A DNA stretch of 40,841 nucleotides from assembly GCA_003648625.1 (NCBI GenBank), contig QMPO01000001.1, positions 1-40,841 of the forward strand, given 5' to 3'. The notes beneath the pieces were generated by a model. That model ran no database searches and had not been told where the DNA came from. It saw only the letters and a list, made by a program, of their open reading frames with translations. How positions within the stretch are numbered: the first letter of the stretch is position 1; each line of letters starts with the position of its first letter. Source of the DNA: Bacteroidota bacterium (GTDB taxonomy: Bacteria > Bacteroidota > Bacteroidia > Bacteroidales > F082). A program made the position numbers and the translations under genes. Shown piece by piece: positions 2,880 to 40,841 of the stretch.

Positions 2880-2880
2880 C

Positions 2881-23581: not shown

Positions 23582-26341
23582 TTAGCGGACTATAAGTTTT
23601 TTCACGCCTGTTTTACCTCCATTTTCCACCTTTAAAAAATACATCCCGGGGCGAATTCCTTCAATACTTGCATTAACGTAGTTTACCCCTTTGCTGAGTT
23701 GCGTTCTGGCTATTTCTTTTACTTTCATGCCTGTAATATCAAACAGACTCATGTTGAGAGTTCCTCCTTTCTCAGTTTCTACTCTTATATGCACCTCTGA
23801 TGTTGCCGGATTGGGATAAAGTTCAATCTTCAGGTCATCTACAGAGGCTTTTTCTTCATTTATTCCAACATATTCAGGCGCTGACAGTTTTTTGCTGGTA
23901 TATAATCTATACTCTCCGGCCTGCAGTAACACCAATTCATTTACATTGGTTACTTCAATCGAATCTCCGGTCCAGTACTCATACCATGTTCCTGTAAAAT
24001 AAAAATCAGGATCAATTTCTGCTTCTGCAACATCGAAATTACCCAGCACAACAACTGACATATCAGGCGTTGTAAGTTTTACTTTTTTTACTGCCCCACG
24101 CACATCCAGTTCAAAATCTTCTGTTTTAAACACATCAAGATTTTTCTTCAGATCGATCAACGATGCATAGGTATAATATAAGCTGCGCCGCTTCCAACTT
24201 TCCATGTAATCCCATCTCGGAGGTTTCTCTCCTACCCTTCCGTTGTAGTTAATCGTATAATCATAACCGCGCTCACCAAACTGCCAGATCATTTTCGGTC
24301 CCGGGATGGTAAAGAAGAAATTAGCCGCAAGCGCTTCACGCTGCAATGCCGTTACCGTATCCTTGATGTCATAATTTCCGGATGAATTCCCGAAAGAGAT
24401 GTTCTTAAACATCAGTCTTTCTTCATCGTGGCTTTCCATATATCCTACCACATGCGGTTCATCCCAGCCACGTTTTTGATACGAAATCCATGAAAAATCG
24501 GATTTTCCGCTGTCATTATAACCCATGGTAGCTTCGTTGTAATTATAATTCGAGTTACCCCAAAGCAGCATTCCGTTACCAGATAGTGTTTTTTCTTCAC
24601 TGTTGGCGGCAAAATGTTCAAGAATTACATAGGCATCCGGATCGTAAGACCAGATGACATTTGCCATGCGTGTCAGGATATTAATACGCGACTGGTCATA
24701 ACCACCACCATCACCCGGCGTATTGGTAAATCCTTTTGTAAAATCAAACCGGAAGCCATCCACTCTGTATTCTTCAATCCAATACCTGTTTACGCGGTCC
24801 ACAAAATTCCTGGTATCCTGACTTTCGTGGTTAAAATCACTGCCCCAGCTAAAAACCGGATTGGGTGACACGGTATTAAACCAGGGATTGTTAGCTGCCG
24901 GTCTGTTGTTTGTAGCATCCCAGTACATCATCACCAAAGGGCAGGTATTGTAGGCATGGTTCAGTACCATATCCATTACAACAGCAAATCCCCGGCTGTG
25001 ACACTCGTCGATAAAAGCCTTTACCGTATTTTTCGGGCCATAATATTTGTCGGGAGCAAAGTAATAGTTGGGGTTGTACCCCCAGCTCGAGTTACCTTCA
25101 AATTCACTGAACGGCATTATTTCAATCACATTAACACCCAGTCTTTCCAAATAGTCAAGTGTATCTTTTAAGGCAGCAAACGTGTGGTTGCCGGTAAAGT
25201 CACGTACCAGCAGTTCATAAACCACCATATCTGTTATTTCTGGACGAGTGAAATCATCAGTTTCCCATGAATATTCTGTTTGTGCTGTTTGAAAAACCGT
25301 GGCTATCCCGGTGGTTTTCCCTTCCGGATATGTCAGCATGTTCGGGTAAGTTGCTGCGGTAATCCATTTGTCGTTCCATGGGTCACTTACTTTATCAGCA
25401 TAGATATCACCAACACGAATATCCCCGTCAATAAAGTACTGGTAAATATATTCTCTGCCCGGTTCCAGATTGTTTATCTCTATCCAATAGCGTTTGCTGT
25501 CAACAGAGCGTTTCATATAATAATCGTCCTCAAGTTCCCAATTACTGAAATCACCTACAGCAAAAACAAATTCTTTTTCAGGAGCATAAAGGCTCAGGAT
25601 TACAGTTTGATCATCGATGTAATTAATACCGTCTGTTATTCCTTCGGGAGGGTCTTCTATTACCAAAGGAGGCCTGACAAAATAATAAAATGAGTCGGCC
25701 ACACTTTCCATACTGTTAACAGCAATTGCTTTCACCCAGGTTTTACCCGTGTTTTCAACAACAATATCATAAGAAAAGCTGCTTCCGGTATCGGCATACA
25801 CCTGTTGCTCTCCAACATACAGGAATGTAGAATCTGCTTCACTGCTGTTACCCTCTACATGGATAATATCCTCGGTTTCGACAATAACCGGAAATTCCTC
25901 AGGCAAGGTAATCTGAATGGCCAGGCCTTCTTCGTAAACGGGATAAAAGATATCGGGATACGTTTGCTGGCTGGCATCGGCACTCCTGAAAACAAAACAT
26001 AATTCGCTGATAACTTCTGATAAATCAACATTATAAAATGTACGTATTGAAGGTGTAATCTCAAGCTGGTAAAGGTTAGCTCCCGTCTGTGTCAGCTTAG
26101 GCTGTGTGTTGTTATCTCCCCAACTGCCAATTACATTTTGCCAGTTTGTACCGTTAACTGTCACGCCGGTATGCGCATATACATCACCCGAATACCCTTC
26201 AAGGCCTGTTCCGGTAGTATTTAATGTAATTGTTACTGCTGCGTCAGCTGTTGGGAACGGCGGATCAACAATAATTACCTGGGCATTAACTGATAATCCT
26301 GTAAGAAAGCAAATTATTAGTACGGAAAGTTTTTGTAGCAT
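23582..26341 (-). CDS. GH13 alpha-glucan hydrolase (amylase/pullulanase-like, with a CBM48-like module), T9SS cargo
   Basis: GH13 regions are present: VVMDMVLNHA, VDGFRFDFTKG, VILEHF, YMESHDEE. A CBM48-like region precedes them (FAVGDFSNWE...YQYFIDG). A signal peptide is present. The C-terminus LYPNPATSEVHIRV...GMYFLKV...KLIVR is a T9SS sorting domain. Confidence 0.8.
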   Translation of the reverse strand: MLQKLSVLIICFLTGLSVNAQVIIVDPPFPTADAAVTITLNTTGTGLEGYSGDVYAHTGVTVNGTNWQNVIGSWGDNNTQPKLTQTGANLYQLEITPSIRTFYNVDLSEVISELCFVFRSADASQQTYPDIFYPVYEEGLAIQITLPEEFPVIVETEDIIHVEGNSSEADSTFLYVGEQQVYADTGSSFSYDIVVENTGKTWVKAIAVNSMESVADSFYYFVRPPLVIEDPPEGITDGINYIDDQTVILSLYAPEKEFVFAVGDFSNWELEDDYYMKRSVDSKRYWIEINNLEPGREYIYQYFIDGDIRVGDIYADKVSDPWNDKWITAATYPNMLTYPEGKTTGIATVFQTAQTEYSWETDDFTRPEITDMVVYELLVRDFTGNHTFAALKDTLDYLERLGVNVIEIMPFSEFEGNSSWGYNPNYYFAPDKYYGPKNTVKAFIDECHSRGFAVVMDMVLNHAYNTCPLVMMYWDATNNRPAANNPWFNTVSPNPVFSWGSDFNHESQDTRNFVDRVNRYWIEEYRVDGFRFDFTKGFTNTPGDGGGYDQSRINILTRMANVIWSYDPDAYVILEHFAANSEEKTLSGNGMLLWGNSNYNYNEATMGYNDSGKSDFSWISYQKRGWDEPHVVGYMESHDEERLMFKNISFGNSSGNYDIKDTVTALQREALAANFFFTIPGPKMIWQFGERGYDYTINYNGRVGEKPPRWDYMESWKRRSLYYTYASLIDLKKNLDVFKTEDFELDVRGAVKKVKLTTPDMSVVVLGNFDVAEAEIDPDFYFTGTWYEYWTGDSIEVTNVNELVLLQAGEYRLYTSKKLSAPEYVGINEEKASVDDLKIELYPNPATSEVHIRVETEKGGTLNMSLFDITGMKVKEIARTQLSKGVNYVNASIEGIRPGMYFLKVENGGKTGVKKLIVR

Positions 26342-26393: not shown

Positions 26394-26425
26394 TATAAAA
26401 AAACTGCCCCGATTGGGGCAGTTTT
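26394..26425 (-). terminator. Rho-independent terminator after the multi-CBM gene
   Basis: The minus strand reads CTGCCCC-aatc-GGGGCAG followed by TTTTTTT. It lies 24 nt after the stop at 26449. Confidence 0.75.
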
Positions 26426-26448: not shown

Positions 26449-29400
26449 TTATTGAACAATGAGCTTTTTAACCGCACGTTTGCCGTCTTCGCCCATAATG
26501 TTTACGAAGTAGACTCCTCTTGAGAGACCACTCATGTTGAACTGTACCAGTCCGCTTGCACGGAAGCTGTCTTGTACCTGAACAATAACTCTTCCCTGAA
26601 TATCAGTTACCATTACCTGAACATCACCTTTGAATGTTTCACCTATTGATTTGAGGTTTACATATCCATTGGTTGGGTTCGGGAACAATAAGATGTCAGC
26701 ATTGTATAAAACATTATTCTCACTGATACTGTTAGCAAAGAAGTATGGACCACCAGCTAATTGTAAATCACCAAGATCGCCGGTATTGTTCCAGTTATCA
26801 CCTGTTCCGTACCAAACTGTCTGGTAATCCCTGCCCTGATCCAGATCATTGTCGTTGTTGCCAAGGCTCCATCCCATGACACGTCCTTTACCTGGTGCAA
26901 AATTGAAGTTATCCCATCCAAGACGGATTTCAACCGCATAACCATCATCTGTATTCAACCATTGAGAGTTATAGTTTGTAATAGGTACTCCATCTGCTTT
27001 AATCCACAAGAGGTCGGTTCCATTAGCGCCATCAGCATTATTGCTAACCACATCCATTATTAATTGCGTGTCAAAATCGCCATCATAAGTACCGTCTTTG
27101 TCATTGTTACCGTCAATGTACATTTCAATAGCATCATTATCCCAGGGGTTGCCAACAGATGCAAGATTAACAACTCCATCAACAACATTAGCTCCGATGT
27201 ACAAGTTAAACTCATCCCATTTAGCACCCCATGTAACTGTATTGTTATTCGGGCCTGTGCCAACAACAACGCCATCACTACCATATGCCAGGTCGTACTC
27301 ACTTAAATCACCATCAATCGCCGGTGGTGTTTCCGTATATTGTGCCTGAGCAAGTCCTTCTTCAGGAACTGTTCCATCAGCGTTGAAATTGTACTCGCCT
27401 GTAATACAATCAAATGAAACTCTGTACCTGTTAGCCGTTGCCGGAACCATTGGTCCGCCAATAACAGCTGTTCCTGTCGGGAAATCGGCAGCGCCCCACT
27501 CAACTGTTGATTGACCATCTTTTCTGAATACAACATCCTGTGCATCGAAAAACTCATAAGTTCCCACATAATTTGTCGGCATATCCGTCGGGTTTCTCAA
27601 AATAACATCACCAATTGTTGAGTTGTACACACTAATGCAACCGCATGATAATTCGCCAAAGGTCAAATCACCGAATGAAGATGTATTCGAAACATTTTCT
27701 AATCCACCATTCCACGCAAGTGTATAAGCTACACCTTCACCATCATCATCATAATAGAACAGGTCAAATCCCATTTGGTTTCCTTCTTCGGGAGTTACCC
27801 CCAGTTTATCCAAAGGAATGCCAATTTCTGCTGAATAACCATCAGCGGTAATCTGGAATCCCAGTAAAATATCAGAAGCGGTGAAGCCATCAGGTCCTTC
27901 CAGAATCTCAACACCGGTAGCACCAAATTTTGCTCGTAAATCATGACCATCATATACACCTCCTGACTTATCTCCATCAATAAACACCTCACCGGCATCG
28001 TCCACGTAAGGAACAGCATCCTTAACATCAACACCTACAAACAGGTAAGCTCCTTCGCGTGCATCAGGATTTTTATAAGTAACACCAAAATTAACTTCGT
28101 TTACATCATCATTTGCTTCACCATCAATAATACGCGAAATATTCTTGCTAATATCCCAGTCGGCTTCGTTTAATTTACCATCTACTGTTATGTCAAACAC
28201 TTTGGGGGCGATGACAGAATTACCCAAACGTGTAAAACAGAAATCACCCGATTTGCAGTTAAATGTAATATCGTATTTACCTCCGGGCACCTGGATCAAT
28301 TTAGTTACATCGTGCATGCCTGTACCACAAGGGAATGTACCTCCCCAGATATTATCGTTTCCAATAGGCTGTCCATCGGACATTTTAAAGAAAAGATTTG
28401 TTGCTGCCGTAAAATTGTACGATAAAGTAAACTCGCTCGGATAATCTGCATCACGTGCCATAAATGTTGGTGGCAGATCTTCATTTGCACCCCACTCGTT
28501 GAAATCACCTAATAACTCTATTTCAGTACAAACGTCATTGTTTGGAACAAAATTATATTCAAAGGTCAACGCGTTAAAAGTAACGTCATATGTTCCAGCC
28601 ACTAACGGGATGTTTGGTCCATTATCAGGATTACCAACACCACTTGGCCAGTCGCTGTTGCCCCAGGCTTGCGTCCAGTCTTTGTTCTCACGGAATTTCA
28701 CTTCTGAATCTTCGTACCATGAACGGGTAAGTTTCCATAACTGCGGATTAAGAGGGTCACGATGCATCATCACATCACCGTTCCAGTTATTAAAAGCGCC
28801 AATCATACTGATTGGACCACTGGTGAGCTGGAAAGTATATTGACAGGTTGTATCGTCTATCCAAGTAAACAAGACGAGGTAGTCAGTTGTAATTCCCGGA
28901 TCAGCTTCGTCATTTAGCGGCACCTGGATGTTCGGTCCGTTAACGGCTGTACCTGTTCCTGAAGGAAAATCTGACCCTCCCCAGCTTACAGTCCAATCGG
29001 CATCCTGACGGAATTTAACTTCTACTGTATCATTGCCATTATCATCGCTGTCAGCATTCAGGTGTAAAACCGCTCCCCACATGTTTGGGTTATCCGGCAA
29101 TCTGTACATTGGATAATCGGCGCTCCAGCCATTGAACTCGCCAATCATGGAAATGACTCCACTTGATTTCTGGAACGTATAATTGGCTGTAGTATCATTC
29201 AGCCATTCAAATGTTACAAAGTAACTGCCTTCAGGAGCTTTGATATTTGGCCCGCTATTTACAGCTACTCCGGAAGGAAAATCAGCACCTCCCCAGTTAT
29301 AAGTCCATTCAGCATTCTGCCGGAACTTAACCTCAACGGTATCGTCCGGGGTTTCAGTGATGTCTTTCAGCGTGATTCCTGTTGTCCATATATCAGGATC

Positions 29401-29847
29401 TGAAGCGTCACGAGTCATCTCATGATCGCCCGTCCACAGGTTAAATTCTCCTATCATACCAATGTTACCACTTGTTCTCTGAAAATTGTACGTAGCCGTT
29501 GAATCTGCCGGATTGAATTCAAACGTTACATAGTAGTTACCTTTAGGTGCCAGGACATTTGCCCCGCCCATTGTTGCTGTTCCTGATGGAAAATCAGCAG
29601 AGCCCCAGTTTACGGCCCAGTCGGCATCAAGCCTGAACTTAACCTCAACGGTATCATTCGGAGTTTCCGTAATATCAACTAAATTGATGTACGTTGACCA
29701 CATGTTCGGATTTTCCATGTCACGTGTCATGTTATGATCACCGTTCCATAGATTGAACTCGCCAATCATGCTGACTTGTCCCTGCTGACTTATTGCGTTC
29801 AGCGAAACAAAAACAGCCAAAATTACTAACAGTAAAATTCTCTTCAT
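26449..29847 (-). CDS. Non-catalytic multi-CBM surface/secreted protein: six starch-binding-like beta-sandwich repeats, two CBM9-like domains and a T9SS sorting domain
   Basis: It has a signal peptide. Five tandem ~100-aa repeats (aa 25-540) share the pattern IGEFNxW..D..M.RD...P..W....L......D.VEVKFR....W...WG..DFPSG....GPNI..P.G.Y.VTF.....YxFQ, and a sixth lies at aa ~745-825. Two CBM9-like regions are marked by DGKLNEADWD... and IDGDLSEYD...WDNDAIEMYIDGNNDKDG. The T9SS C-terminal domain reads LLFPNPTNGYVNL...GVYFVNI...KLIVQ. No glycoside hydrolase catalytic motif was recognised. Confidence 0.7.
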   Translation of the reverse strand: MKRILLLVILAVFVSLNAISQQGQVSMIGEFNLWNGDHNMTRDMENPNMWSTYINLVDITETPNDTVEVKFRLDADWAVNWGSADFPSGTATMGGANVLAPKGNYYVTFEFNPADSTATYNFQRTSGNIGMIGEFNLWTGDHEMTRDASDPDIWTTGITLKDITETPDDTVEVKFRQNAEWTYNWGGADFPSGVAVNSGPNIKAPEGSYFVTFEWLNDTTANYTFQKSSGVISMIGEFNGWSADYPMYRLPDNPNMWGAVLHLNADSDDNGNDTVEVKFRQDADWTVSWGGSDFPSGTGTAVNGPNIQVPLNDEADPGITTDYLVLFTWIDDTTCQYTFQLTSGPISMIGAFNNWNGDVMMHRDPLNPQLWKLTRSWYEDSEVKFRENKDWTQAWGNSDWPSGVGNPDNGPNIPLVAGTYDVTFNALTFEYNFVPNNDVCTEIELLGDFNEWGANEDLPPTFMARDADYPSEFTLSYNFTAATNLFFKMSDGQPIGNDNIWGGTFPCGTGMHDVTKLIQVPGGKYDITFNCKSGDFCFTRLGNSVIAPKVFDITVDGKLNEADWDISKNISRIIDGEANDDVNEVNFGVTYKNPDAREGAYLFVGVDVKDAVPYVDDAGEVFIDGDKSGGVYDGHDLRAKFGATGVEILEGPDGFTASDILLGFQITADGYSAEIGIPLDKLGVTPEEGNQMGFDLFYYDDDGEGVAYTLAWNGGLENVSNTSSFGDLTFGELSCGCISVYNSTIGDVILRNPTDMPTNYVGTYEFFDAQDVVFRKDGQSTVEWGAADFPTGTAVIGGPMVPATANRYRVSFDCITGEYNFNADGTVPEEGLAQAQYTETPPAIDGDLSEYDLAYGSDGVVVGTGPNNNTVTWGAKWDEFNLYIGANVVDGVVNLASVGNPWDNDAIEMYIDGNNDKDGTYDGDFDTQLIMDVVSNNADGANGTDLLWIKADGVPITNYNSQWLNTDDGYAVEIRLGWDNFNFAPGKGRVMGWSLGNNDNDLDQGRDYQTVWYGTGDNWNNTGDLGDLQLAGGPYFFANSISENNVLYNADILLFPNPTNGYVNLKSIGETFKGDVQVMVTDIQGRVIVQVQDSFRASGLVQFNMSGLSRGVYFVNIMGEDGKRAVKKLIVQ

Positions 29848-29954
29848 TTTTATTAAGTTTTAATGAATAATTAGGATATATTTTGTGCTAAGATAATGAA
29901 ATTTTAGCTTTTTGTCCAGCTTCACAAGGCAACCGGAGTGTTTTTATCCACCGG

Positions 29955-29987
29955 CAAATTTAAATTGCCTGAAACAATTGATGCAAA
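29955..29987 (-). promoter_or_regulatory. Candidate promoter of the multi-CBM gene: -7 TAAATTTG (29955-29962) and -33 TTTG (29984-29987), 21-bp spacer
   Basis: Both elements match the Bacteroidota consensus TTTG-N19-21-TAnnTTTG on the minus strand. The -33 element lies inside the palindrome at 29981-29996. Confidence 0.45.
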
Positions 29988-29996
29988 CGTTTGTGT
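29981..29996. promoter_or_regulatory. LacI-family-type palindromic operator (ATGCAAACGTTTGTGT)
   Basis: The core CAAACGTTTG (29984-29993) is a perfect 10-bp palindrome centred on CG, like PurR/CcpA-type boxes. It sits in the divergent region between the multi-CBM gene and susC, and a LacI-family regulator is encoded in the locus. Confidence 0.5.
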
Positions 29997-30269: not shown

Positions 30270-33269
30270 ATGCTTAAAAAAATACGTTTTCTTAAAGTAT
30301 TCCTGTTGACATTCCTGCTTTTTGGCATTACCCAAATGTATGCGCAGGAAAAGACAATTACAGGAGTTGTTACAGATGCCGAAACCGGTGAAACGTTGAT
30401 TGGTGTTAACGTAACATGGGGCAGTGACATGGGGAAGGGCGCCGTTACGGATATCGATGGAAATTACCAGTTGATCGTACCCGACACATTGAGTGCTCTC
30501 CGGTTTTCTTATGTCGGATACACTCCGCAAATCATTCCGATCACTTCCGATGTAATTCATGTGGCTTTGCAGCCCGGCGAAGAGTTACAGGAGGTGGTTA
30601 TTGTGGGTTACGGCACGCAAAAAACAAAAGAAGTTACCAGTGCCATTGCGCGTGTGAAACCGGAAGATTTCAATCAGGGCAACATCAGCGATCCAATTCA
30701 GCTTATACAAGGAAGGGTTGCAGGGGTTTCCATATCGAAGCCCGGCGGTGATCCTAACCAGGACTTCAACGTAAGGATCAGAGGCCTTTCCACTTTTGGT
30801 TCGAACACACAACCACTGATCATTATTGACGGAGTACAGGGTACAACAGATTTATTAAACTCTCTTGACCCTGACGATGTTGCTTCTTTTGATGTGTTAA
30901 AAGATGCTTCGGCAGCTGCTATTTACGGAACAAAAGCCGCTTCGGGAGTAATTATTATTACCACTAAAAAAGGAGAGTTTGTTCAGGGTGATAAGAAAAC
31001 CTTCAACCTGACATTTAACACTGCCCTCACTTCCGAATCGGTAGCAAGAAAACTGGACGTTTTATCGGCAGACGAGTATCTGCAGTTTTCAAATGCAACC
31101 AATTACAACAACGCTACCGACTGGATGGATGAAATCACACAGAAAGGATTCCAGCAGGCATATAACCTGGCAGCACAGGGAGCAACTAAAAATTCCAGTT
31201 ACAGAATATCTTTCAACTACAGAGGAGGTAACGGAGTTGTAAGATCAACCGGATATGAGCAACTGAACGGGCGGGTTAATTTTACCCAAAAAGGACTTAA
31301 TGACAAGCTTACTCTCGATTTCAATTTGTCGGGAACAACGAGGAAAGAAGATTATACACAGAGTGATGCGATGACTTTTGTAGCCCGGTATAATCCCACG
31401 GCACCGGTTATGGCGACAACAGACACTATAGATTCTTTCTCCCAGGAGTGGGGAGGATATTTCCAAAGGGAAGCATTCTCGTTTTATAATCCACGTGCTA
31501 TAATCGACCAGGGAACGCTTGACGGTAAGAAATCAAATATTGTGGGGAGTCTGAAAGCAACTCTTGAGCCAATTAAAGGATTGAAATTAAGTGGTTTCTA
31601 TTCTGTTACGCAGGGCAACGAATTGTTTGGCACCTATTGGAGTAAGAACGCCTACTGGACACCCTATGCTGTAGGAAGCCATAAAGGTTTTGCAAGAAAA
31701 GAAACAAAAGATCACTTTAACCAACTTTTTGAGATTATAGGTAGTTATGAGAAACGCTGGGAGAAGGTAGGATTTAGTGTTATGGGAGGTTACTCGTGGC
31801 AGGAAGCTATTGATGATGAATTCTGGGCTTATGGCGAAGGATTTCTATCTGACGGTTTCTCCTATAACAACTTAGGCTCTGCATCGGTAAACAAAGCCAA
31901 TAAAGAAACAATGAGCAGCTATAAAAAAAGAGCTACACTTATCGGCTTCTTCGCAAGAGCTTCATTTACTTTCTTGGATGGAATATATTTAACAGGTAGC
32001 TTCAGGAGAGACGGCTCAACAATGTTTGGTGAAAATAATAAATGGGGTAATTTCCCTGCCGTCAGTGCCGGCTTCGACCTGGCTAAGTTTGTAGATCTTG
32101 GATTCGTAAACCAGTTGAAATTCAGAGGAGGCTATGGTGTTACAGGAAACCTTCCTCCCGAACCCTATTTATCACAAGAGCGATTTAATGTTACCAACGA
32201 AATGTTCTTCTACAATGGAGAATACATTCAGGCATACGCTCCTGTACGAAATGCTAACCCAAACCTTAAATGGGAAACAAAAGCAGAAATAGATGTGGGT
32301 GTAGACTTTTATATGTTAAATTATAAAATCAGCGGATCTATCGATTATTATCAGAGTAAAAGTTCAGACCTGCTGTTGGAATATACAGTGCCGGTTCCGC
32401 CCAACGCTTCTGACAGGATGTGGATCAACCTGGGGGAGTTGAAAAACGCCGGGCTTGAGTTTGCTGTAAGCTGGAAAGTGTTCGAAAATAAAAAATGGGG
32501 GTGGACAACCAATTTCAATTTTTCAAAATACTTCGATACCAAACTGGCTAAAATTACAAGTGAATTTGTGGACTCAGATGCTACTATCTATCTGGGTGAT
32601 TTAGGAGCTCCTTTCTTTACGGGCATACAAACTATCCTGGTTGAAGAAGGTCAGCCAATAGGGCAAATTATTGCCCCTATATATGTGGGCATCGACTCAA
32701 CCGGTAAATTATTGTATCAGGTTTCAGCAGATACAATTGATGGAATTGGCACAAACCCTGATCAGTATGACGATTACCACACAGTAGGTAACGGGCTTCC
32801 TGACTTTGAGCTTGGTTGGGGAAATACTTTTTATATAGGAAATTTCAACATTAACTTTTTCCTGAGAGGTGTATTCGGCCATTCGCTACTCAACGTAAAC
32901 AATGCACGCTACGGGGTTCCGGTAGTTATGGGAATCCAGAGCGGTATGGCACAGGCCCTTGATTTTATTGATGCGACCAACGGCCCTGTTTATTCAAACG
33001 TACATGTTGAGAAGGCTGATTTTGTCTCGCTTGACAACTTTTCGCTGGGATATCGATTTGATTTCCCCAACAGCAATTATGTAAGTAATATGAACATTTA
33101 CATTTCAGGGCAGAATTTATTTACCATCACAGGTTATTCCGGAGTTTCTCCCGAAGTAAGATACGGCGATGCGTACAACAACAACAATCCGCTGGCACCG
33201 GGAATCGACAGAGAGAATACATATTTCAGAACCAAAAGCTTCACATTGGGAGCGAGTATATCATTTTAA
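30270..33269 (+). CDS. susC: SusC/RagA-family TonB-dependent outer membrane transporter
   Basis: 999 aa with an N-terminal CarboxypepD_reg-like domain. The SusC signature VVIVGYGTQKTKEVTSAI is present, followed by plug and barrel regions, and the C-terminus ends in F. A SusD gene follows immediately. Confidence 0.9.
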   Translation: MLKKIRFLKVFLLTFLLFGITQMYAQEKTITGVVTDAETGETLIGVNVTWGSDMGKGAVTDIDGNYQLIVPDTLSALRFSYVGYTPQIIPITSDVIHVALQPGEELQEVVIVGYGTQKTKEVTSAIARVKPEDFNQGNISDPIQLIQGRVAGVSISKPGGDPNQDFNVRIRGLSTFGSNTQPLIIIDGVQGTTDLLNSLDPDDVASFDVLKDASAAAIYGTKAASGVIIITTKKGEFVQGDKKTFNLTFNTALTSESVARKLDVLSADEYLQFSNATNYNNATDWMDEITQKGFQQAYNLAAQGATKNSSYRISFNYRGGNGVVRSTGYEQLNGRVNFTQKGLNDKLTLDFNLSGTTRKEDYTQSDAMTFVARYNPTAPVMATTDTIDSFSQEWGGYFQREAFSFYNPRAIIDQGTLDGKKSNIVGSLKATLEPIKGLKLSGFYSVTQGNELFGTYWSKNAYWTPYAVGSHKGFARKETKDHFNQLFEIIGSYEKRWEKVGFSVMGGYSWQEAIDDEFWAYGEGFLSDGFSYNNLGSASVNKANKETMSSYKKRATLIGFFARASFTFLDGIYLTGSFRRDGSTMFGENNKWGNFPAVSAGFDLAKFVDLGFVNQLKFRGGYGVTGNLPPEPYLSQERFNVTNEMFFYNGEYIQAYAPVRNANPNLKWETKAEIDVGVDFYMLNYKISGSIDYYQSKSSDLLLEYTVPVPPNASDRMWINLGELKNAGLEFAVSWKVFENKKWGWTTNFNFSKYFDTKLAKITSEFVDSDATIYLGDLGAPFFTGIQTILVEEGQPIGQIIAPIYVGIDSTGKLLYQVSADTIDGIGTNPDQYDDYHTVGNGLPDFELGWGNTFYIGNFNINFFLRGVFGHSLLNVNNARYGVPVVMGIQSGMAQALDFIDATNGPVYSNVHVEKADFVSLDNFSLGYRFDFPNSNYVSNMNIYISGQNLFTITGYSGVSPEVRYGDAYNNNNPLAPGIDRENTYFRTKSFTLGASISF

Positions 33270-33293: not shown

Positions 33294-34847
33294 ATGAAAA
33301 GATTATCAATTTCATTTAAAATAATGTTGGTTGCCTTACTGATTCTTGTGGTGGGCACCCAGCAATCGTGTACTAAACTTGAGGAACCTGTGTATTCGGA
33401 GCTTACCGGAGACAAGTTTTTCGAGAATCCTGATAATTTAATCTACGCTTTCGGTGTGGCTTATACAAACCTGTATCAGCTAATGGGACATAAGTATGGT
33501 ATTGGTTTCGATGCGGGAACTGACATTCTGGTTGTTCCCCAAAGAGGCGGCGACTGGTTCGATGGCGGAGAATGGATTCGCTGGCATCGGTTAGAATACC
33601 GACCGTCAGAAGCTTATGTTAGCAGATGGTGGAATATCATTTATTATGGAATTAACACATGTAACCGCCTTATATTTCAGTTTGAGGCCCTGGAAGAAGT
33701 AGACGTGACACCTGCCGTTTCAGAATTACGTGCTTTGCGGGCTTTGTATTATTACTGGCTGGTTGATATTTACGGAAACGTACCAATTCAAACAGATTTC
33801 AATGTACCTCCCGATTTCAAACCGAGTACCAAAACCCGGCAGGAAGTGTATGATTTTATTGAAGCAGAATTAAAAGAAGTAATGCCTCATCTCTCAAAAG
33901 AGACAGGCCTTGCCTATTTTGGCAGAATGAATTATTATGCTGCACAAATGGTTTTGGCAAAACTTTATCTGAATGCCGAAGTTTATACAGGAGTACCCCA
34001 ATGGGAGAAAGCATCGAAAGCCTGCGATTCAGTTATGACAGGGAACTTTAGCTTAACCGGCAATTTCTTTACAAATTTTGAAGAAGATGCAACTACTTCG
34101 CCTGAATATATTTTAGGCATTGCCTTCGACCAGGTAAATGCACCTGCCTTTGAAGTTCATCTTTTTACACTTCATTACAATCTGTCGAGTAAATATCAAT
34201 TTGAAGACAATTGCTGGAACGGGCTTTCCATTCAGGAATCTTTGTACAACTCATTTGAGGAACAAGACGTAAGAAGAAACGGGCTGTTGGCAGGATTTCA
34301 ATACTTTGACGATGGAACTCCTGTAGAAGACCCCAGTTACGAACAGTTCAATCCTAACGACCCGACGGCACCTATTGATCCGGACGGTGCGCCGCTGAAC
34401 CTGACTCCTGAGATAAACATGCTTGAGCCAAACTGTTTACGTCAGGCAGGAACAAGGGTAGCCAAATTCCCGTTTATTGTAGGCAGTGACAGGTATACAA
34501 GTAATGACTTTCCGATTTTCAGATATGCTGATGTTTTACTGATGAAAGCCGAAGCCTTAATGCGCTCGGGCGGTGACATAGGGTTGGCACTTAGTCTTGT
34601 GAACCAGGTAAGAGCTCGTGCCAATGCTACTCCTTTAACAGAGCTAACGTATGAAAATCTGCTGGCCGAACGTGGTCGCGAATTATATGCTGAAGGATTC
34701 AGACGTTCTGATATGATCCGGTTTGGCGTTCTTCTAAATACACGTTGGGAGAAGCCTGAGGTTTCACCTTCATATGTTACATTATGGCCTATTCCCGAAA
34801 GCCAGATCCAGGCAAATCCAAACCTGATACAGAACCCAGGGTATTAG
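33294..34847 (+). CDS. susD: SusD/RagB-family nutrient-binding outer membrane lipoprotein
   Basis: The lipobox reads GTQQSC. The SusD-like TPR core is present (RALRALYYYWLVDIYGNVP, LMKAEALMR, LLAERGRELYAEGFRRSDMIRF). Confidence 0.9.
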   Translation: MKRLSISFKIMLVALLILVVGTQQSCTKLEEPVYSELTGDKFFENPDNLIYAFGVAYTNLYQLMGHKYGIGFDAGTDILVVPQRGGDWFDGGEWIRWHRLEYRPSEAYVSRWWNIIYYGINTCNRLIFQFEALEEVDVTPAVSELRALRALYYYWLVDIYGNVPIQTDFNVPPDFKPSTKTRQEVYDFIEAELKEVMPHLSKETGLAYFGRMNYYAAQMVLAKLYLNAEVYTGVPQWEKASKACDSVMTGNFSLTGNFFTNFEEDATTSPEYILGIAFDQVNAPAFEVHLFTLHYNLSSKYQFEDNCWNGLSIQESLYNSFEEQDVRRNGLLAGFQYFDDGTPVEDPSYEQFNPNDPTAPIDPDGAPLNLTPEINMLEPNCLRQAGTRVAKFPFIVGSDRYTSNDFPIFRYADVLLMKAEALMRSGGDIGLALSLVNQVRARANATPLTELTYENLLAERGRELYAEGFRRSDMIRFGVLLNTRWEKPEVSPSYVTLWPIPESQIQANPNLIQNPGY

Positions 34848-34925: not shown

Positions 34926-35933
34926 TCACGTGGTTCCCCGAACAACAACCTGTGTTTTCATCATCCGTCGTTCTACCTCATATTCAAATGTATTCAGTTT
35001 TATACGCGCAAGCAGTAATCCGGTAGCTTCTTTGCCAAGTTCAAATCCAAATTGATCAACTGTGGTAAGTTCCGGCTCGCAAATCCACGAACTCCTGCTG
35101 TTTTCAAAGCCTACAAACCGGATATCATCAGGTACGCGCAACCCAAGCTTTTTGGCTACTTTCATTGCTCCGATAGCTGTCAGATCATTCACAGCAAATA
35201 TGGCATCGGGTCTGTCGTGCTTTTTCAGGATGCTGCGGGATATTTTTTCTGCTTCATCAAATGTGTCGCACGAATAAACCAATTCAGGATTGTAGGTAAT
35301 CCCATGATCCTCTAAGGCGGCTTTATATCCTTCCAGTCTGTTTTTTCCAAGAACAAGATGTTCGGGCGCCGAATAAAAAGCAATCCGCCTGCTTCCTTTT
35401 GAAATCAGATGGGAAACCGCATGATAGGCACCGGAATAATCGTCAACAATCACACTGTCGGCGTGCAACTCTCCACGTTCACGGTCGAAAAACACCAGAG
35501 GAATTTCATTTTCAATAATTTGTTTGAAATGAGAAAAATCGTGGGTGTTTTTTGAAAACGAAGCCAGCACACCATCCACCCGGTTCGTTAGAAAGTTTTG
35601 TGCGATTAGCACTTCACGCATATATGATTCGTTTGACTGAAAAACCATAACGCTGAAATTGTTCTTATACGCTACTTCTTCAACACCATTTAAAACACTG
35701 GAAAAAAAATAGTGTTCCACTTCGGGAACCAAAACTCCAATGGTGTTTGTCCGGCTATGCTTCAGGTTTAAAGCAATCATGTTAGGTTTATAGCCCAGAA
35801 TATTTGCCAGTTCTTTTACCGCCTCTCGTGTTTTCACACTGATATCAGGATGGTCTTTCAAAGCGCGGGAAACAGTCGAAGTGGAGACTCCGAGTTTTCT
35901 GGCAATATCTTTAATGGTAACCTGATGCTTCAT
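34926..35933 (-). CDS. LacI-family transcriptional regulator
   Basis: The helix-turn-helix reads VTIKDIARKLGVSTSTVSRALKDHPDISVKTREAVKELANILGYKPN, followed by a periplasmic-binding-protein-like sugar-binding core. The ATG at 35933 was chosen because the track start (TTG at 35960) lies inside the -7 box. Confidence 0.9.
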   Translation of the reverse strand: MKHQVTIKDIARKLGVSTSTVSRALKDHPDISVKTREAVKELANILGYKPNMIALNLKHSRTNTIGVLVPEVEHYFFSSVLNGVEEVAYKNNFSVMVFQSNESYMREVLIAQNFLTNRVDGVLASFSKNTHDFSHFKQIIENEIPLVFFDRERGELHADSVIVDDYSGAYHAVSHLISKGSRRIAFYSAPEHLVLGKNRLEGYKAALEDHGITYNPELVYSCDTFDEAEKISRSILKKHDRPDAIFAVNDLTAIGAMKVAKKLGLRVPDDIRFVGFENSRSSWICEPELTTVDQFGFELGKEATGLLLARIKLNTFEYEVERRMMKTQVVVRGTT

Positions 35934-35957
35934 TAATCGGGTGTTCAAATGTGCGCA

Positions 35958-35965
35958 CAAAGTTA
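35958..35965 (-). promoter_or_regulatory. Candidate -7 box (TAACTTTG) for the LacI-family gene
   Basis: Exact TAnnTTTG match on the minus strand, 25 nt upstream of the ATG at 35933. It overlaps the palindrome TGTGCGCACA (35950-35959). Confidence 0.4.
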
Positions 35966-35999: not shown

Positions 36000-37394
36000 C
36001 TAGTTGGTCAGTACAAAATACGACCACGGGCTGATATCCATAACCATATCAGGTACAAGCTCCATTTTCCCGCCTGTAAAAACATTTGTATAGGTTCCGT
36101 AAACCTGGTCGGAAGACGGCTTAAACTGTGTCTGCTCGCCACTCAAATTAATGATAGAAATTATTTTATTGTCATCCTTTTCACGTAAAAAGGCCAGAAT
36201 ATTCTCATTATTTTCTTCGCCTATATTGACTATATTTCCTCCCTCAGTCCCATTCCATAACGCTTTATTCGTCTTCTTCAGCAGGTTCAACTTGGTATAA
36301 AAATCCTGATATCTGATGTTGCTCCAGTCGATGGTGTCTTTTTCAAAAAACCGGAGCACTTTATCATTACCGGTTTCTTGTCCGCTGTATATTAACGGCA
36401 TGCCCGGGATGGTATATGTTAGTACGGCAAAGGCCTCAACACCATCGCCCAAACGTTTTTGCACAGTTCCATTCCATGAGTTTTCATCATGATTGGTGAT
36501 GAATGTCATACGATAATCTTCCCTGGAAAAGGTATTTTCATTCCAACTCAGATAATCCCAAATGTCATTTGCATTCTTTTTGCCTTTCGCAATATCATTC
36601 ATCAGATGAAGCAATTTCCACGAATAGTTCATGTCAAAAGCATGCTCCAGAAGTGCCGTATTATCTTCATCCTCAGCCAGCATAAATACCGGTTTGATCT
36701 GTTTCAGCTGAGCTACTGCATCATTCCAGAAATCGACAGGCACCATTCCTGCCACATCGCAGCGGTATCCGTCCACATCTGCTTCTTCAATCCAGAATTT
36801 CAACGCCCTGATCATACTGTCACGCATGGCCGGATTATCATAGTCAAACTCAATCACATCTGTCCAGTCGTAAGGCGAGTGAAAAGTGCCATCATCATTT
36901 TTAACATAGTATTCAGGGTGCTCCTCAGTCCAGATATTATCCCAGGCCGAATGGTTAGCTACCCAGTCGAGTATAACATACATACCCATTTCGTGGGCTT
37001 CTTTTACCAGGTCTTTCAAATCCTGCATTGTACCAAATTCAGGATTGACCGCTTTGTAATCCTTTACCGAATAATAACTTCCCAGTGAACCTTTTCTGTT
37101 TAACCCGCCAATGGGCTGAACCGGCATAAGCCACAAAATATCCACGCCCATTTCCTTCAATCTGGGCAGATGTTCCCTGAAAGCATTTATTGTACCCTCG
37201 TTGCTATATTGTCTGATATTTACCTCGTAAATATTCGCATTTTTACTCCATTCCACATGTTTCATTTCTGTCTCCTTTTTATCATTTTCATTAGTTGTGT
37301 TATTCTCTTTTTGCTGTGACCCGCAGGAAATCAGAAAAACCGGTAACAAAACACAGGCAAATATGACCGCTATATTCTTTTTCATATAATTCAT
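36000..37394 (-). CDS. GH13 alpha-amylase lipoprotein
   Basis: The lipobox reads FLISCGS. GH13 regions are VILDWVANHSA, VDGYRCDVAGMV, FMLAEDED and FITNHDENSW. Confidence 0.85.
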   Translation of the reverse strand: MNYMKKNIAVIFACVLLPVFLISCGSQQKENNTTNENDKKETEMKHVEWSKNANIYEVNIRQYSNEGTINAFREHLPRLKEMGVDILWLMPVQPIGGLNRKGSLGSYYSVKDYKAVNPEFGTMQDLKDLVKEAHEMGMYVILDWVANHSAWDNIWTEEHPEYYVKNDDGTFHSPYDWTDVIEFDYDNPAMRDSMIRALKFWIEEADVDGYRCDVAGMVPVDFWNDAVAQLKQIKPVFMLAEDEDNTALLEHAFDMNYSWKLLHLMNDIAKGKKNANDIWDYLSWNENTFSREDYRMTFITNHDENSWNGTVQKRLGDGVEAFAVLTYTIPGMPLIYSGQETGNDKVLRFFEKDTIDWSNIRYQDFYTKLNLLKKTNKALWNGTEGGNIVNIGEENNENILAFLREKDDNKIISIINLSGEQTQFKPSSDQVYGTYTNVFTGGKMELVPDMVMDISPWSYFVLTN

Positions 37395-37397: not shown

Positions 37398-40166
37398 CTA
37401 TTCTTGTTTTTGGTTTTTATTCACGATCAACTTTTTCTTTGAATGCACTTTCCATGCAAAGCGAGTCGTTAACATATCTGCTTTGCTACCAGCTACGTCC
37501 TGCCCAATAATTTCCAGCTTTATTTCCCTCTTACTAAAATCCAATGGGAGGCTATAATTCCGGCTTTCAAATATAAACGAATAGGTATTATTATCAGACG
37601 TTACACTAAAATTTAAGATTTCATAGCCGGTTTCTGCCGTATGAGGCAAATACGTTTGACCATCATCATTGTATATAAACCCTTGGTTGTAAGAGGTTAA
37701 ATTATCCGGATAATAACGGATTGTGAGTTGTTCGGTTGTATAATTATCAGTGGTTTGAACGGTTTGCGAAAACGGAATAAAGGAACCGGCTTTTACAAAA
37801 ACAGGAATTGTCTCAGGTTCCGTCTTAACCTCGATCCATTGCCCGCCATCGTAACGAAAGTGATGCCAGAAGTCGTACCATACCGTTCCGTCCGGTAAAT
37901 AAACTTTCCTTTTTTTCTGGCCATGCTCAAGAACCGGCGCTACCAGCAAATTTTCTCCGAACATGTATTCGTCACCAACAGAATAAGTTGCGGTATCGTC
38001 GGGGAATTCATAGAATAAGGGCCTTACTATCGGTTCTCCTTCGATACTTGCCAGGTAAGTGAGCGTATAAATGTAAGGCAATAAGCTGTAGCGCAGTTTT
38101 ATAAAATCGCGCACAATCTGCTGCGTGGTGTCACTAAAATAAACCGGTTCAGACGGAATATCCGAGCCATGCGGGCGCAGGATGGGTGAAAAACAGGCCA
38201 TTTGCAGCCAACGCGTGTACAACTCTTCATCTTTCGTGCCTTGTGCAAAACCTCCGGCATCGGAATGGATGAATGGCAATCCACTCAGGCTCATGTGCAG
38301 CATCAGGGGCAATTGTGCCTGCAAACCACCCCAACTTCGCGACACATCGCCAGTCCACGGGTAAACAGCGTATCGCTGCGAACCGGCATAACCTGCCCTG
38401 TTTAAATTGAATAGTCTTGTATTGGGATATTCTTCCCGGTATTTTTCATACAGGAATTTGTGCCAGTAGTGTCCGTAAATATTGTGTACTTCGTCCGCTT
38501 TGCCATTTACATGATATATGTCTGAAGGATGGCTTTCGGGTTCGCCCAAATCGCCCCACCAGCCGGCCACTCCTATTTCGATCTGCTTTTTATACTGTGC
38601 CCAGAACCACTCCCATGCTGCCGGTTTGAACATATCAATCAGCCCGCCATTCCCAAAATAGAATTCGTAGTTGATGTATGGATTCCCGAAGCTGTCAGTT
38701 GCCAGGATTCCCTTCTCTGCTGCTATCCTGAAATTTTTAAGCGAATCTAAAATATATGGTTCGGTGATAAGAATGGTTTTTACGCCTTCTTTTCTAAACT
38801 TTTTAATCATTCCTTCAGGATCCGGCCAGTTAGGTTTGTACCATTTGAGCCTTCCGAGAGTTCCCAGAATGCTGTCGCCAAACCAGTAAAAATCGAGAAT
38901 CACTGCATCCAGCGGAAAATCTTTCTTTAACATCAGGGCTACAATCGAATCTGTTTCATATTGCGTACGGTAAGCCATCCGCGATTGCAGGTTACCTAAT
39001 GCCCAAAGAGGCGGTAACGGCTGGTAACCGGTTAAACCGGCATAGTCTTTTGTAATACTTTTATAATCGTTTCCGGCAATCACAAAATATTTCATCAGTC
39101 CGCCAATAGCGCCCCACTCCAGAATACCAGCTTCCGTTTCGCCAATATCAGCATAACCTTTTTGGGGGTTATCGAAAAATAATAAGTATTTTTTAGATGA
39201 AACAATAAGCGGAATGGAATAATTCAAATTTTGGGCGCCGATCTCATAGCCGTATTTGGGTCGGTTGTATAAGTTATACCTCACTCCTGCAAGATTAAAA
39301 GCATTGGCCCGCTCTCCCAATCCGTATATCTTTTCACCACTACCCAATCTGAATCGCAGGCCATCGTTATCTGTCCGGCTAAAAAACCCGCGTTCTTCCT
39401 GCAATATAGTATCGCCATCAAAAATAAAAGAAAGACGGAAGGGGGTTTTGTTCATAACAACTTCCAGACTATCGGTAATCAATTTAAGGGTATTGCTGTC
39501 TTCTTTTAAAGCAAACTCAATTTCATGCGGAACTAATATAGCCGCCACTGAAGAATCTTGTTCGGGTTCATTGCTTCTGAAATTTTTAACTTCAACAATG
39601 CGATTGGTATAAGGTATTACCTGCGTCAGACCATAATCTGTGTGTACAAATAAGGTGTTATTACTTATCTCATGCGATACATATTTTCTTAGATTGAACA
39701 GATATTTAGCCGGTGCCCTTTCAGGTGGTTTATACCCGTTTACATTCAGGAAAATATCTTCATTGGTTTTTGTTTTTCCCACTTTTGAACCGTCAACACT
39801 TCGAAATACAAACGCCAGTTGCTGCGGGATTTCATCAGAACTTAAACCATAAAAATCCTTTATAACAAACGTAAATTGATGCAATCCATTATCAATTGGA
39901 GTCATCTTTACCCTGGGGTCATCTTTACCCCAAGTTCCTACAACATGCTTCCAGTCGCCGCCATCAATACTTTTTTGTGTGATTACACCGGTGTGCAGAT
40001 AAACGGTCCCGTCGTAATCTGCCAACGCTCTGTTTCCTTCATTGGCATTGTACGTCAGCGTCACTGTGTCGGTTGGTGACGGGTCGGGAGGGTCCAGCCA
40101 GGCAATCTGAGCTTGCACATGAATAAATACGAAGAGGATTAGTAATAAAAATGTAGTGCGCATCAT
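37398..40166 (-). CDS. GH31 alpha-glucosidase with an extra N-terminal ~110-aa module
   Basis: GH31 motifs are DAVILDFYWFG, GVAGWWGDLGEPE and YPWTGDVSRSWGGL. A signal peptide is present. The stop lies 3 nt upstream of the next gene's start, suggesting an operon. Confidence 0.85.
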   Translation of the reverse strand: MMRTTFLLLILFVFIHVQAQIAWLDPPDPSPTDTVTLTYNANEGNRALADYDGTVYLHTGVITQKSIDGGDWKHVVGTWGKDDPRVKMTPIDNGLHQFTFVIKDFYGLSSDEIPQQLAFVFRSVDGSKVGKTKTNEDIFLNVNGYKPPERAPAKYLFNLRKYVSHEISNNTLFVHTDYGLTQVIPYTNRIVEVKNFRSNEPEQDSSVAAILVPHEIEFALKEDSNTLKLITDSLEVVMNKTPFRLSFIFDGDTILQEERGFFSRTDNDGLRFRLGSGEKIYGLGERANAFNLAGVRYNLYNRPKYGYEIGAQNLNYSIPLIVSSKKYLLFFDNPQKGYADIGETEAGILEWGAIGGLMKYFVIAGNDYKSITKDYAGLTGYQPLPPLWALGNLQSRMAYRTQYETDSIVALMLKKDFPLDAVILDFYWFGDSILGTLGRLKWYKPNWPDPEGMIKKFRKEGVKTILITEPYILDSLKNFRIAAEKGILATDSFGNPYINYEFYFGNGGLIDMFKPAAWEWFWAQYKKQIEIGVAGWWGDLGEPESHPSDIYHVNGKADEVHNIYGHYWHKFLYEKYREEYPNTRLFNLNRAGYAGSQRYAVYPWTGDVSRSWGGLQAQLPLMLHMSLSGLPFIHSDAGGFAQGTKDEELYTRWLQMACFSPILRPHGSDIPSEPVYFSDTTQQIVRDFIKLRYSLLPYIYTLTYLASIEGEPIVRPLFYEFPDDTATYSVGDEYMFGENLLVAPVLEHGQKKRKVYLPDGTVWYDFWHHFRYDGGQWIEVKTEPETIPVFVKAGSFIPFSQTVQTTDNYTTEQLTIRYYPDNLTSYNQGFIYNDDGQTYLPHTAETGYEILNFSVTSDNNTYSFIFESRNYSLPLDFSKREIKLEIIGQDVAGSKADMLTTRFAWKVHSKKKLIVNKNQKQE

Positions 40167-40180: not shown

Positions 40181-40841
40181 TTATTTCATCAATTCCACAA
40201 TCATCGGTGATTTTGCCGGCACAGTGATGTAATCAAGTTTTTCAAACATGGTTCTGCTTAAAACACTTCTTCCGGCCGTATAACCTTTCAGATTTTCGGC
40301 AAACCGTGATAAATCCACCTTGCTTTCTTCTTCCGTGTTGTTCAGCAAAACCATCACTGCTTCATCATCCGTATGCCTGAAATAAACGTACACTCCGTTT
40401 TCAGGAATGTATTGGGTAAACTCGCCTGATTGAACAGCCTTGTTATTCTTTCTCCAGTTCAGCAGTCTTCGTGTAAAATTAAAAGCATCCAGTTGCTCAG
40501 GTTCCAGCCCCACTTGTTCAAATACATTCACTTTATCACCCGGCCATCCTCCCGGAAAGTCTTCCCGGATATAGCCATGGCCATCGTGTTCGTTACCGGT
40601 CATCAGGATTTCGCCACCATAATATATTTGTGGTATTCCTCTTATGGTCATCACAAATGTCATCCCCAATTTGAACTTACGGATATCTTCCTGCATTTTA
40701 GTGTAAAACCGATCCCCGTCGTGGTTGTCTGTAAAAACAATCAAATTCATCGGGTTGCTGTAAAGAAAATCCTGTGCAAGTATTTCGTACAATGCAAGAG
40801 TTCCCCTGTCCCATCCATCTTCTTCATTAAAGGCTCTGTTT
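40181..40841 (-). CDS. GH13 family enzyme, C-terminal part only (cyclomaltodextrinase/neopullulanase SusA-like); the 5' end is cut by the window edge
   Basis: The reading frame stays open from 40792 to the window end (…NRAFNEEDGWDRGTLALYEIL…). GH13 conserved region IV is present (VFTDNHDGDRF), followed by the C-terminal beta domain. The stop lies 14 nt upstream of the GH31 start. Confidence 0.7.
   Translation of the reverse strand, partial: NRAFNEEDGWDRGTLALYEILAQDFLYSNPMNLIVFTDNHDGDRFYTKMQEDIRKFKLGMTFVMTIRGIPQIYYGGEILMTGNEHDGHGYIREDFPGGWPGDKVNVFEQVGLEPEQLDAFNFTRRLLNWRKNNKAVQSGEFTQYIPENGVYVYFRHTDDEAVMVLLNNTEEESKVDLSRFAENLKGYTAGRSVLSRTMFEKLDYITVPAKSPMIVELMK

Follow-up and report, generated by a model that had tools for sequence, protein, structure and literature searches.

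How can a Sus-like starch locus capture its polymer at the cell surface when it holds no SusE- or SusF-positioned lipoprotein gene? This question is raised by a 40,841-nt stretch of DNA from a Bacteroidota bacterium of the Bacteroidales lineage F082 (assembly GCA_003648625.1, contig QMPO01000001.1, positions 1 to 40,841 of the forward strand), which we analysed as a whole and refer to as the window. An open reading frame (ORF) at 26449..29847 on the minus strand, with an ATG start, encodes a protein of 1132 amino acids (aa), hereafter the scaffold protein, next to a susC gene. Our analysis suggests that this is probably a non-catalytic, multivalent alpha-glucan binder that a type IX secretion system (T9SS) exports and that does the job of SusE and SusF in this locus.

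Domain architecture and fold of the repeats

The scaffold protein is built, in order, of a signal peptide, five repeats (R1–R5), a first CBM9-like domain (CBM9a), a sixth repeat (R6), a second CBM9 domain (CBM9b) and a type-A T9SS sorting domain. The six repeat units were delimited by anchoring on the GxFNxW, KFR and WG motifs and by alignment. On the minus strand they correspond to R1 (aa 22–126; 29470..29784), R2 (aa 127–229; 29161..29469), R3 (aa 230–343; 28819..29160), which carries an additional loop, R4 (aa 344–440; 28528..28818), R5 (aa 441–545; 28213..28527) and the divergent R6 (aa 737–826; 27370..27639), which has lost GxFNxW. Against a family profile of 696 units taken from homologues, each of the six scored 88–122 bits, with R4 the closest to the consensus (122 bits) and R6 at 104 bits. 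When the same profile was run against the other proteins of the window, no further repeat copies were found, and there was one weak match in the CBM48 region of the neighbouring GH13 enzyme. The original prediction, made from the letters alone, had placed five consecutive copies at aa 25–540 (nt 28228–29775) and a sixth at about aa 745–825, which agrees within a few residues with the bounds of R1–R5 and R6; its domain list and coordinates were confirmed. A recent tandem duplication at the DNA level was ruled out, as Tandem Repeats Finder detected none and the copies are too diverged.

The full-length AlphaFold2 model, computed from 111 aligned homologues, is all-beta with a mean pLDDT of 89.9, and every segment of it was assigned to one of the modules listed above. 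In a Foldseek search with this model, only CBM9 domains, SusF/SusE and Sas6-type binders were returned at a probability of 1.00, SusF being aligned over 556 columns (1e-10). Because the confident model leaves no segment unassigned, there is no room for a catalytic domain, and no enzyme fold was found at high probability, so a hidden catalytic domain was ruled out. This agrees with the original prediction, in which the protein was called non-catalytic.

In order to place the repeats, we modelled R2 alone (pLDDT 96.4). Its closest structure in the PDB by Foldseek was SusF (4fe9; TMq 0.71, probability 1.00), followed at ranks 2 and 3 by SusE (4fch and 4fem), while CBM48 modules of AMPK appeared at rank 4, rank 11 and following; the beta-sandwich of R2 is superimposable on the carbohydrate-binding modules (CBMs) of SusE and SusF. 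None of R1–R6, searched singly against Pfam, exceeded the threshold of any family, SusF_SusE (curated cutoff 27.5 bits) and CBM48 included, and sequence searches of the PDB with repeat profiles gave nothing significant, SusF appearing only at E 3.6. Profile and structure searches with single repeats, which had been proposed along with the original prediction, thus gave a divided answer, since the SusF/SusE fold was recovered but a single-repeat Pfam match was not.

At the level of the family the relationship became visible. Among 86 repeat units of the orthologue family, 22 matched SusF_SusE (PF16411) at E<=1, with a best value of 1.2e-5, and 12 each matched AMPK1_CBM and CBM_48. On the whole scaffold protein CBM_48 (PF02922) gave a weak hit of 28.8 bits that covers only aa 24–76; on one single repeat the CBM48 profile reached 16.5 bits, below its cutoff. 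When the repeat profile was run against 1.84 billion cluster representatives, 2361 proteins scored at E<=1e-3; one of these, P0125, aligned to the repeat profile with an hhalign probability of 99.3% (E 8e-21) and to Pfam SusF_SusE at 1.3e-44. Taken together, the fold of R2, the family-level profiles and the transitive homology through P0125 converge, and we therefore place the repeats, on profiles and models, within the SusE/F-type starch-binding module, as a divergent branch marked by 'GEFNxW' whose N-terminal half is CBM48-like, much as had been proposed for them at the outset.

The module is widespread. No fewer than 2361 protein clusters contain it. Many of these are made of tandem modules and a T9SS signal only, for example 3, 5 or 10 tandem units with a T9SS C-terminal domain (CTD; P0193, P0132 and P0122, respectively). 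Others are GH13 amylases in which N-terminal units are accompanied by fn3 domains and a CTD (P0161, P0178), and P0264 combines two units with a DUF5122 beta-propeller and GBD_T9SS_assoc domains. Judged from these architectures, predicted T9SS-exported proteins made of SusE/F-type modules form a large class, for which a literature search found no experimental study.

Putative binding positions in the repeats and the CBM9 domains

Which of the modules may bind a glycan was addressed by comparison with the glycogen-binding module of the AMPK beta subunit and by residue conservation. The repeats share with the CBM48/AMPK module (PF16561, PF02922) the pattern GxFNxW ... KF(R/F)xxxxW. In an hhalign comparison with the CBM of rat AMPK beta1, GEFNLW paired with GSFNNW and VKFRQNAEW with YKFFVDGQW, such that K48 and W55 of the repeat (R2 numbering) fell on K126 and W133 of AMPK beta1, two residues that we take to contact glycogen. 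The likeness differs in that it ends with the aligned half: the C-terminal half of the repeat (NWG..FPxG..GPNI..Y.VTF..Y.F) is SusE/F-like, and the first tryptophan of the AMPK site, W100, has no counterpart in the scaffold repeats.

Conservation of the putative binding positions was then scored over 116 six-repeat homologues, in R2 numbering. K48 is kept at 99–100% in R1–R4 and is replaced by Leu in R5 and Val in R6; W55 is kept at 96–100% in R1–R4, with Pro or Gln in R5 and Ser or Asn in R6; N58 is kept at 93–96%, with Thr in both R5 and R6; and N75 is kept at 92–99%, with Ile or Leu in R5 and Ala or Pro in R6. The core residues F49, R50, W59, Y83, F87 and F99 are conserved across all six repeats. 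Because the Lys/Trp/Asn signature is retained in R1–R4 and replaced family-wide in R5 and R6, we predict four binding-competent modules (R1–R4) and two (R5 and R6) that retain the fold alone. Six starch-binding-like repeats had been proposed; the six homologous units stood, whereas a valency of six did not. That the scaffold protein binds alpha-glucans, and through these four modules, we infer from such patterns.

Among the glycan-binding domains of the scaffold protein, only CBM9 lies strongly above its curated Pfam threshold. CBM9_1 (PF06452) matched two stretches, with 104.6 bits (cutoff 23.4) and 7.6e-30, which correspond to CBM9a (aa 546–736; 27640..28212, minus strand) and CBM9b (aa 830–1036; 26740..27360, minus strand). 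CBM9b matched PDB entry 1i82 both by sequence (1.6e-11) and by Foldseek (3.5e-11, TMt 0.83). In this alignment W902 (100% conserved), W1019 (99%) and E908 (100%) correspond to Trp71, Trp175 and Glu77 of TmCBM9-2 from Thermotoga maritima Xyn10A, in which Trp71 and Trp175 form the chain-end clamp (PMC8280721). CBM9b thus has the fold, both clamp tryptophans and the glutamate in common with TmCBM9-2 and with CkCBM9.3 (7nwn/7nwo), but the equivalents of Arg98 and Gln151 of TmCBM9-2 are replaced by Ile930 and Gly. At the clamp positions of CBM9a, the window protein has Tyr and Val and the family mostly Thr/Ser and Tyr/Leu; in lacking the clamp, CBM9a resembles CkCBM9.1, a non-binding CBM9 (PMC8280721). 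Of the two, only CBM9b is predicted to be functional, on the basis of its retained Trp/Trp clamp.

These domains also open another reading, in which the protein would bind neither starch nor glycogen but another glycan, for instance beta-glucan or xylan chain ends through CBM9, with the repeats serving mostly as Ig-like spacers. Characterised CBM9 modules bind the beta-linked chain ends of cellulose, xylan and xyloglucan as well as glucose, and not alpha-glucans (PMC8280721), and they are appended to xylanases; the strong Pfam score of CBM9 and the degenerate positions of R5 and R6 would fit such a protein too. CBM9b, however, belongs to an enzyme-free protein of an alpha-glucan locus, in which every enzyme, three GH13 genes and one GH31, is directed at alpha-glucans. 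Surface Lys, Trp and Asn residues conserved at 92–100% in R1–R4 would be unexpected in pure spacers, and in the relatives P0161 and P0178 the same module is fused to GH13 amylases. TmCBM9-2 moreover binds free glucose (PMC8280721), and recognition of an alpha-glucan reducing end is therefore possible. On this evidence we regard a specificity for other glycans as very improbable, and an alpha-glucan ligand remains our preferred reading.

Export, gene neighbourhood and regulation

The N-terminus of the scaffold protein (MKRILLLVILAVFVSLNAISQQ) is a hydrophobic signal peptide of the Sec/SPI type without a lipobox Cys (aa 1–20; 29788..29847, minus strand), modelled as a helix at residues 2–17 with low pLDDT. 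No Cys occurs in the first 30 residues, so this is not a lipoprotein signal. At the other end, the type-A sorting domain (aa 1051–1132; 26452..26697, minus strand) matched Por_Secre_tail (PF18962) at aa 1054–1131 with 49.2 bits (cutoff 27; 6.7e-13) and, at the extreme C-terminus, NCBIfam TIGR04183 with 44.2 bits (cutoff 23; 1.4e-11), and was modelled by AlphaFold as a beta-sandwich. The protein thus carries what defines type-A T9SS cargo, an N-terminal Sec signal and a C-terminal CTD of about 80 aa that matches the profile. Sequence, Pfam and NCBIfam therefore bear out the signal peptide, the two CBM9-like domains and the T9SS domain that had been recognised in the original prediction.

That homologues might be lipoproteins, given a consensus '...SQCG' after the signal peptide, was judged unlikely: Gln at position -1 is atypical for a lipobox, and the same Cys, accompanied by an 'FNC' Cys, opens every repeat, suggesting an intradomain disulfide. 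In the family consensus, repeats begin with Cys and carry the 'FNC' Cys near their end (aa 22, 109–113, 126, 213–217 and 229). The 'FNC' Cys of R1 and the Cys opening the next repeat are both present in 106 of 116 homologues. In the window protein the starting Cys and the 'FNC' Cys are lost together in R1 and R2, and at the 'FNC' site of R2 and R3 three residues are inserted, which is rare. This pattern suggests that the paired Cys form an intradomain disulfide that was given up in the lineage of the window protein.

The protein had been described as T9SS-anchored. The type-A CTD stands, while anchoring is an assumption, since type-A cargo can also be released: in Flavobacterium johnsoniae the amylase AmyB goes to the medium, RemA is both anchored and released, and the AmyB CTD drives the release of heterologous cargo (PMC12618676). 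An alternative is therefore a released starch-binding protein, or a granule or particle adhesin, that diffuses or bridges cells to insoluble alpha-glucan independently of SusCD. The CTD-proximal position of R5, CBM9a and R6, all degenerate, would instead fit the stalk of a C-terminally tethered protein, and we infer attachment to the cell surface.

The gene neighbourhood bears on the same choice. Full-length homologues of the scaffold protein number more than 120, at 45–69% identity and about 1100 aa. All come from metagenomes or metagenome-assembled genomes (MAGs) labelled Bacteroidales, Marinilabiliales, Lentimicrobiaceae, 'Chlorobi/Chlorobiota', Saprospiraceae and similar, and they are annotated only as 'T9SS type A sorting domain-containing protein', 'sugar-binding protein' or 'hypothetical'. 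The closest genome is that of Bacteroidales bacterium UBA4459, at 92% identity. All six repeats are present in 116 of 120 homologues, and the complete layout of eight modules, which recurs in more than 110 of them, points to selection on the whole architecture.

For synteny we compared 13 distinct homologous loci with their flanks. In the window the scaffold gene is divergent from susC across a 422-bp spacer, and orthologous SusC/D (50–91% identity to those of the window) adjoin the scaffold gene in 10 of the 13 loci; in L005 and L018 it lies downstream of susD on the same strand. A T9SS GH13 gene follows immediately downstream in 7 of 13. No susC/D was found in the examined flank of L003 (a 2.9-Mb contig), L015 or L016 (where the flank extends only 835 bp upstream), so that the predicted position next to susC holds for the window and most loci but not for these three. 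They fit a binder that works without SusCD. Against this, adjacency to orthologous SusC/D is kept across MAGs of Bacteroidales, Marinilabiliales, 'Chlorobiota'-labelled and Saprospiraceae lineages, which upholds the predicted association with the SusC/D pair.

Two syntenic loci, L001 and L007, belong to a single assembly (GCA_029935855.1) and probably represent two related populations in one metagenome. Their scaffold proteins are 69% identical and their GH13 partners 78%, which indicates that the binder diverges faster than the enzyme.

The organisation of transcription was examined on both sides of the scaffold gene. A promoter overlapping a LacI-type operator had been predicted in the spacer. 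A LacI-family operator-like palindrome, TGCAAACGTTTGTG with the core CAAACGTTTG, does occur at 29982..29995, 148 nt upstream of the scaffold ATG, and is the sole such site in the window, although its count alone is not compelling statistically (23 of 100 shuffles gave at least one match at equal stringency). The same palindrome lies 149–152 nt before the start codon in L009, L010, L014, L015 and L016, and at the corresponding position L017 and L019 carry variants (ACAAACGATTG). The L015 locus includes a LacI gene and no susC/D alongside. Because its position is conserved across proteins that are only about 52% identical, we argue that the palindrome is a real LacI-type operator. The LacI-family protein encoded at 34926–35960 probably binds it and controls the scaffold gene. 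The palindrome lies upstream of the binder only, not of the amylase.

The predicted overlap with a promoter was not established. A -7-like Bacteroidota box, TATCTTAG (29888..29895, minus strand), of the family pattern TAnnTTAGC, precedes the ATG by about 40 nt and follows the palindrome by about 90 nt; it is conserved in nearly all orthologous loci and is a putative promoter element. A TAnnTTTG box, TAAATTTG, at 29955–29962, 19 nt from the palindrome, occurs only in the window and close relatives; if this were the promoter box, the palindrome would cover the -33 region.

Just past the scaffold stop codon stands a GC-rich, intrinsic-terminator-like hairpin with an 11-bp stem and a U-tract (26400..26425, minus strand). 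Its position is kept in all 7 loci examined (the window, L005, L007, L008, L009, L010 and L012), and the stem sequences differ in the distant ones. A TAnnTTTG box, TACTTTTG (26368–26375, minus strand), lies about 26 nt before the start of the GH13-T9SS gene, which probably has its own promoter. With the conserved hairpin and this box between the two genes (26342–26448), an operon of scaffold and GH13 genes was judged unlikely; the binder and amylase genes look separately transcribed. That the scaffold gene is transcribed on its own and ends in its own terminator would also suit a protein that acts away from the cell. Weighing this, the release of AmyB and the loci devoid of adjacent susC/D against the preserved SusC/D neighbourhood and the stalk-like CTD-proximal half, we consider a released protein or adhesin unlikely and favour a surface-attached binder that would cooperate with SusCD.

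The remainder of the locus is consistent in its substrate. Beyond the spacer come susC (30270..33269) and susD (33294..34847), both on the plus strand, and then, on the minus strand, the gene of the LacI-family regulator (34926..35960), a GH13 (36000..37394), a GH31 (37398..40166) and the C-terminal part of a cyclomaltodextrinase-like GH13 (40181..40792; Cyc-maltodext_C, 3.2e-23). The last of these is cut by the window's right end, and the starch locus therefore extends beyond the part seen here. We scanned the window for a SusE/F-positioned lipoprotein gene after susD and found none: susD is followed directly by the LacI gene. The situation differs in the Marinilabiliales MAG locus L005, in which a second SusC/SusD pair and a SusE-family lipoprotein, whose closest solved relative is BT3088 (SGBPdex, 2.9e-13), are located directly upstream of the orthologous starch locus (positions 1–5008). 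Lipoprotein-type and T9SS-type binders therefore coexist there.

Directly downstream of the scaffold gene, at 23582..26341 on the minus strand, is the gene for a GH13 alpha-amylase of 919 aa with a CBM48-like region and a T9SS CTD, identified by Pfam, PDB match and synteny. Its best PDB matches are alpha-amylases: 8xx9 (9e-180), which we take to be the Rhodothermus GH13_47 amylase, and 8dge/8dl1/8dl2 (about 1e-128), presumably BoGH13ASus, which in B. ovatus is the surface amylase equivalent to SusG. Subfamily GH13_47 includes amylases of B. ovatus and Rhodothermus marinus (PMC11239784), and BoSusG is a GH13_47 enzyme with CBM98 and CBM48 (PMC11633381). The 919-aa enzyme is thus probably of the GH13_47, B. 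ovatus SusG-equivalent type; its N-terminal 240 or so residues have no Pfam assignment. As far as sequence can tell, both outer accessory proteins of the locus, binder and amylase, carry T9SS signals and not lipid anchors.

Elsewhere in the window, a 1288-aa protein (12629–16495, minus strand, TTG start) ends in a T9SS CTD, is otherwise free of Pfam domains at E<=1e-5, and would be a second large T9SS cargo. The left end holds a transposase of the insertion-sequence DDE type (DDE_Tnp_1_6, DUF772; 139–1677, minus strand). Two ORFs for subunits of a 2-oxoacid:ferredoxin oxidoreductase (4845–5543 and 5471–7096, minus strand) overlap by 73 bp as listed, and the true start of the downstream ORF, 4845–5543, is probably later than its listed start codon.

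Proposed function and relation to known systems

We propose the following course of events. The scaffold protein would be exported by the Sec pathway through its type I signal peptide, and its type-A CTD would be recognised by the T9SS for translocation over the outer membrane; the CTD would then be cut off, leaving the protein surface-attached or released. A C-terminal anchor would put R1–R4 farthest from the cell, where they could capture starch or glycogen chains multivalently, while R5, CBM9a and R6, their binding signatures lost, may serve mainly as a stalk and the membrane-proximal CBM9b may grip a glucan chain end by its Trp/Trp clamp. The neighbouring T9SS-tagged GH13 amylase would cleave the bound polymer, SusC/D would import the oligosaccharides, and their breakdown would be completed by the GH13, GH31 and cyclomaltodextrinase-like enzymes, whose genes adjoin that of the LacI-type regulator; this regulator would control the scaffold gene via the upstream palindrome.

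The nearest precedent is SusE and SusF of B. thetaiotaomicron (4fch/4fem and 4fe9; PF16411), which likewise consist of non-catalytic, tandem beta-sandwich modules of about 100 aa and belong to a starch polysaccharide utilization locus (PUL) with susC and susD. SusE has two starch-binding modules and SusF three, and genetics showed that their binding sites promote growth on large starch and assist its passage across the capsule layer (PMC4173775), a role that multivalent capture of high-molecular-weight alpha-glucan by the scaffold protein would serve here. They differ from the scaffold protein in having an N-terminal lipidated Cys and genes directly after susD (PMC4173775), whereas the latter has no lipobox, ends in a T9SS signal and is encoded divergently from susC. 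The scaffold protein further has six modules, four of them predicted to be competent, and two CBM9 domains that SusE/F lack, and its 'GEFNxW' repeats fall individually under the PF16411 threshold. As it lacks a lipid anchor and its gene is placed differently, it does not belong to the strict SusE/F class; its modules do fall within the SusE/F-type module family, and it most likely works like SusE/F. The idea that a T9SS scaffold has taken the SusE/F role thus survives as one of functional analogy, and not of class membership.

Two other systems are comparable. T9SS-linked carbohydrate-active enzymes (CAZymes), such as F. johnsoniae ChiA and AmyB and the cellulases of 'Ca. Paraporphyromonas polyenzymogenes', are also glycan-degradation proteins with CBMs and a type-A CTD, some of them in or near PULs (PMC5127042, PMC5831590, PMC12618676), but they are enzymes, whereas the scaffold protein has no catalytic module and would be a binder only. 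Sas6 and Sas20 of the Ruminococcus bromii amylosome are enzyme-free, multi-CBM extracellular starch binders as well, and Sas6 was a Foldseek match (3e-7). They differ in their Gram-positive host, their dockerin–cohesin tethering and their CBM families (CBM26 and CBM74).

Several points weigh against the proposed function. The single repeats stay below every Pfam threshold, and the Foldseek E-values of the R2 model are modest (best 5.5e-3). The AMPK alignment has a probability of 65% over 46 columns and is confined to the first half of the module. The ligands established for CBM9 are not alpha-glucans, type-A cargo may be released instead of anchored, and some scaffold homologues adjoin no PUL (L003). 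We nevertheless hold it likely that the protein is an exported alpha-glucan binder in the service of this starch locus.

A bolder version would make it one of a distinct class of T9SS-delivered surface glycan-binding proteins (SGBPs) that replace SusE/F lipoproteins in several uncultured Bacteroidota, with a C-terminally, covalently tethered stalk, four distal starch sites and a proximal CBM9 that clamps alpha-glucan reducing ends, feeding SusCD. This version is doubtful and we offer it tentatively; if true, it would be the first case of a CBM9 specific for alpha-glucans and of a SusCD utilisome with a T9SS-anchored component. The sharp split between conserved modules (R1–R4 and CBM9b) and degenerate ones (R5, R6 and CBM9a) offers constructs that can be tested directly.

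Lipoprotein accessory binders underlie the Sus paradigm and the 'utilisome' picture built on it, and here the binder and the surface amylase have T9SS signals instead. For T9SS-linked CAZymes near PULs there is precedent (PMC5831590, PMC5127042), while our literature search found no study of an enzyme-free, architecturally fixed T9SS binder in place of SusE/F. If such proteins are surface-tethered and cooperate with SusCD, PUL prediction that looks for an SGBP lipoprotein gene downstream of susD would overlook a whole class of proteins by which environmental Bacteroidota capture glycans.

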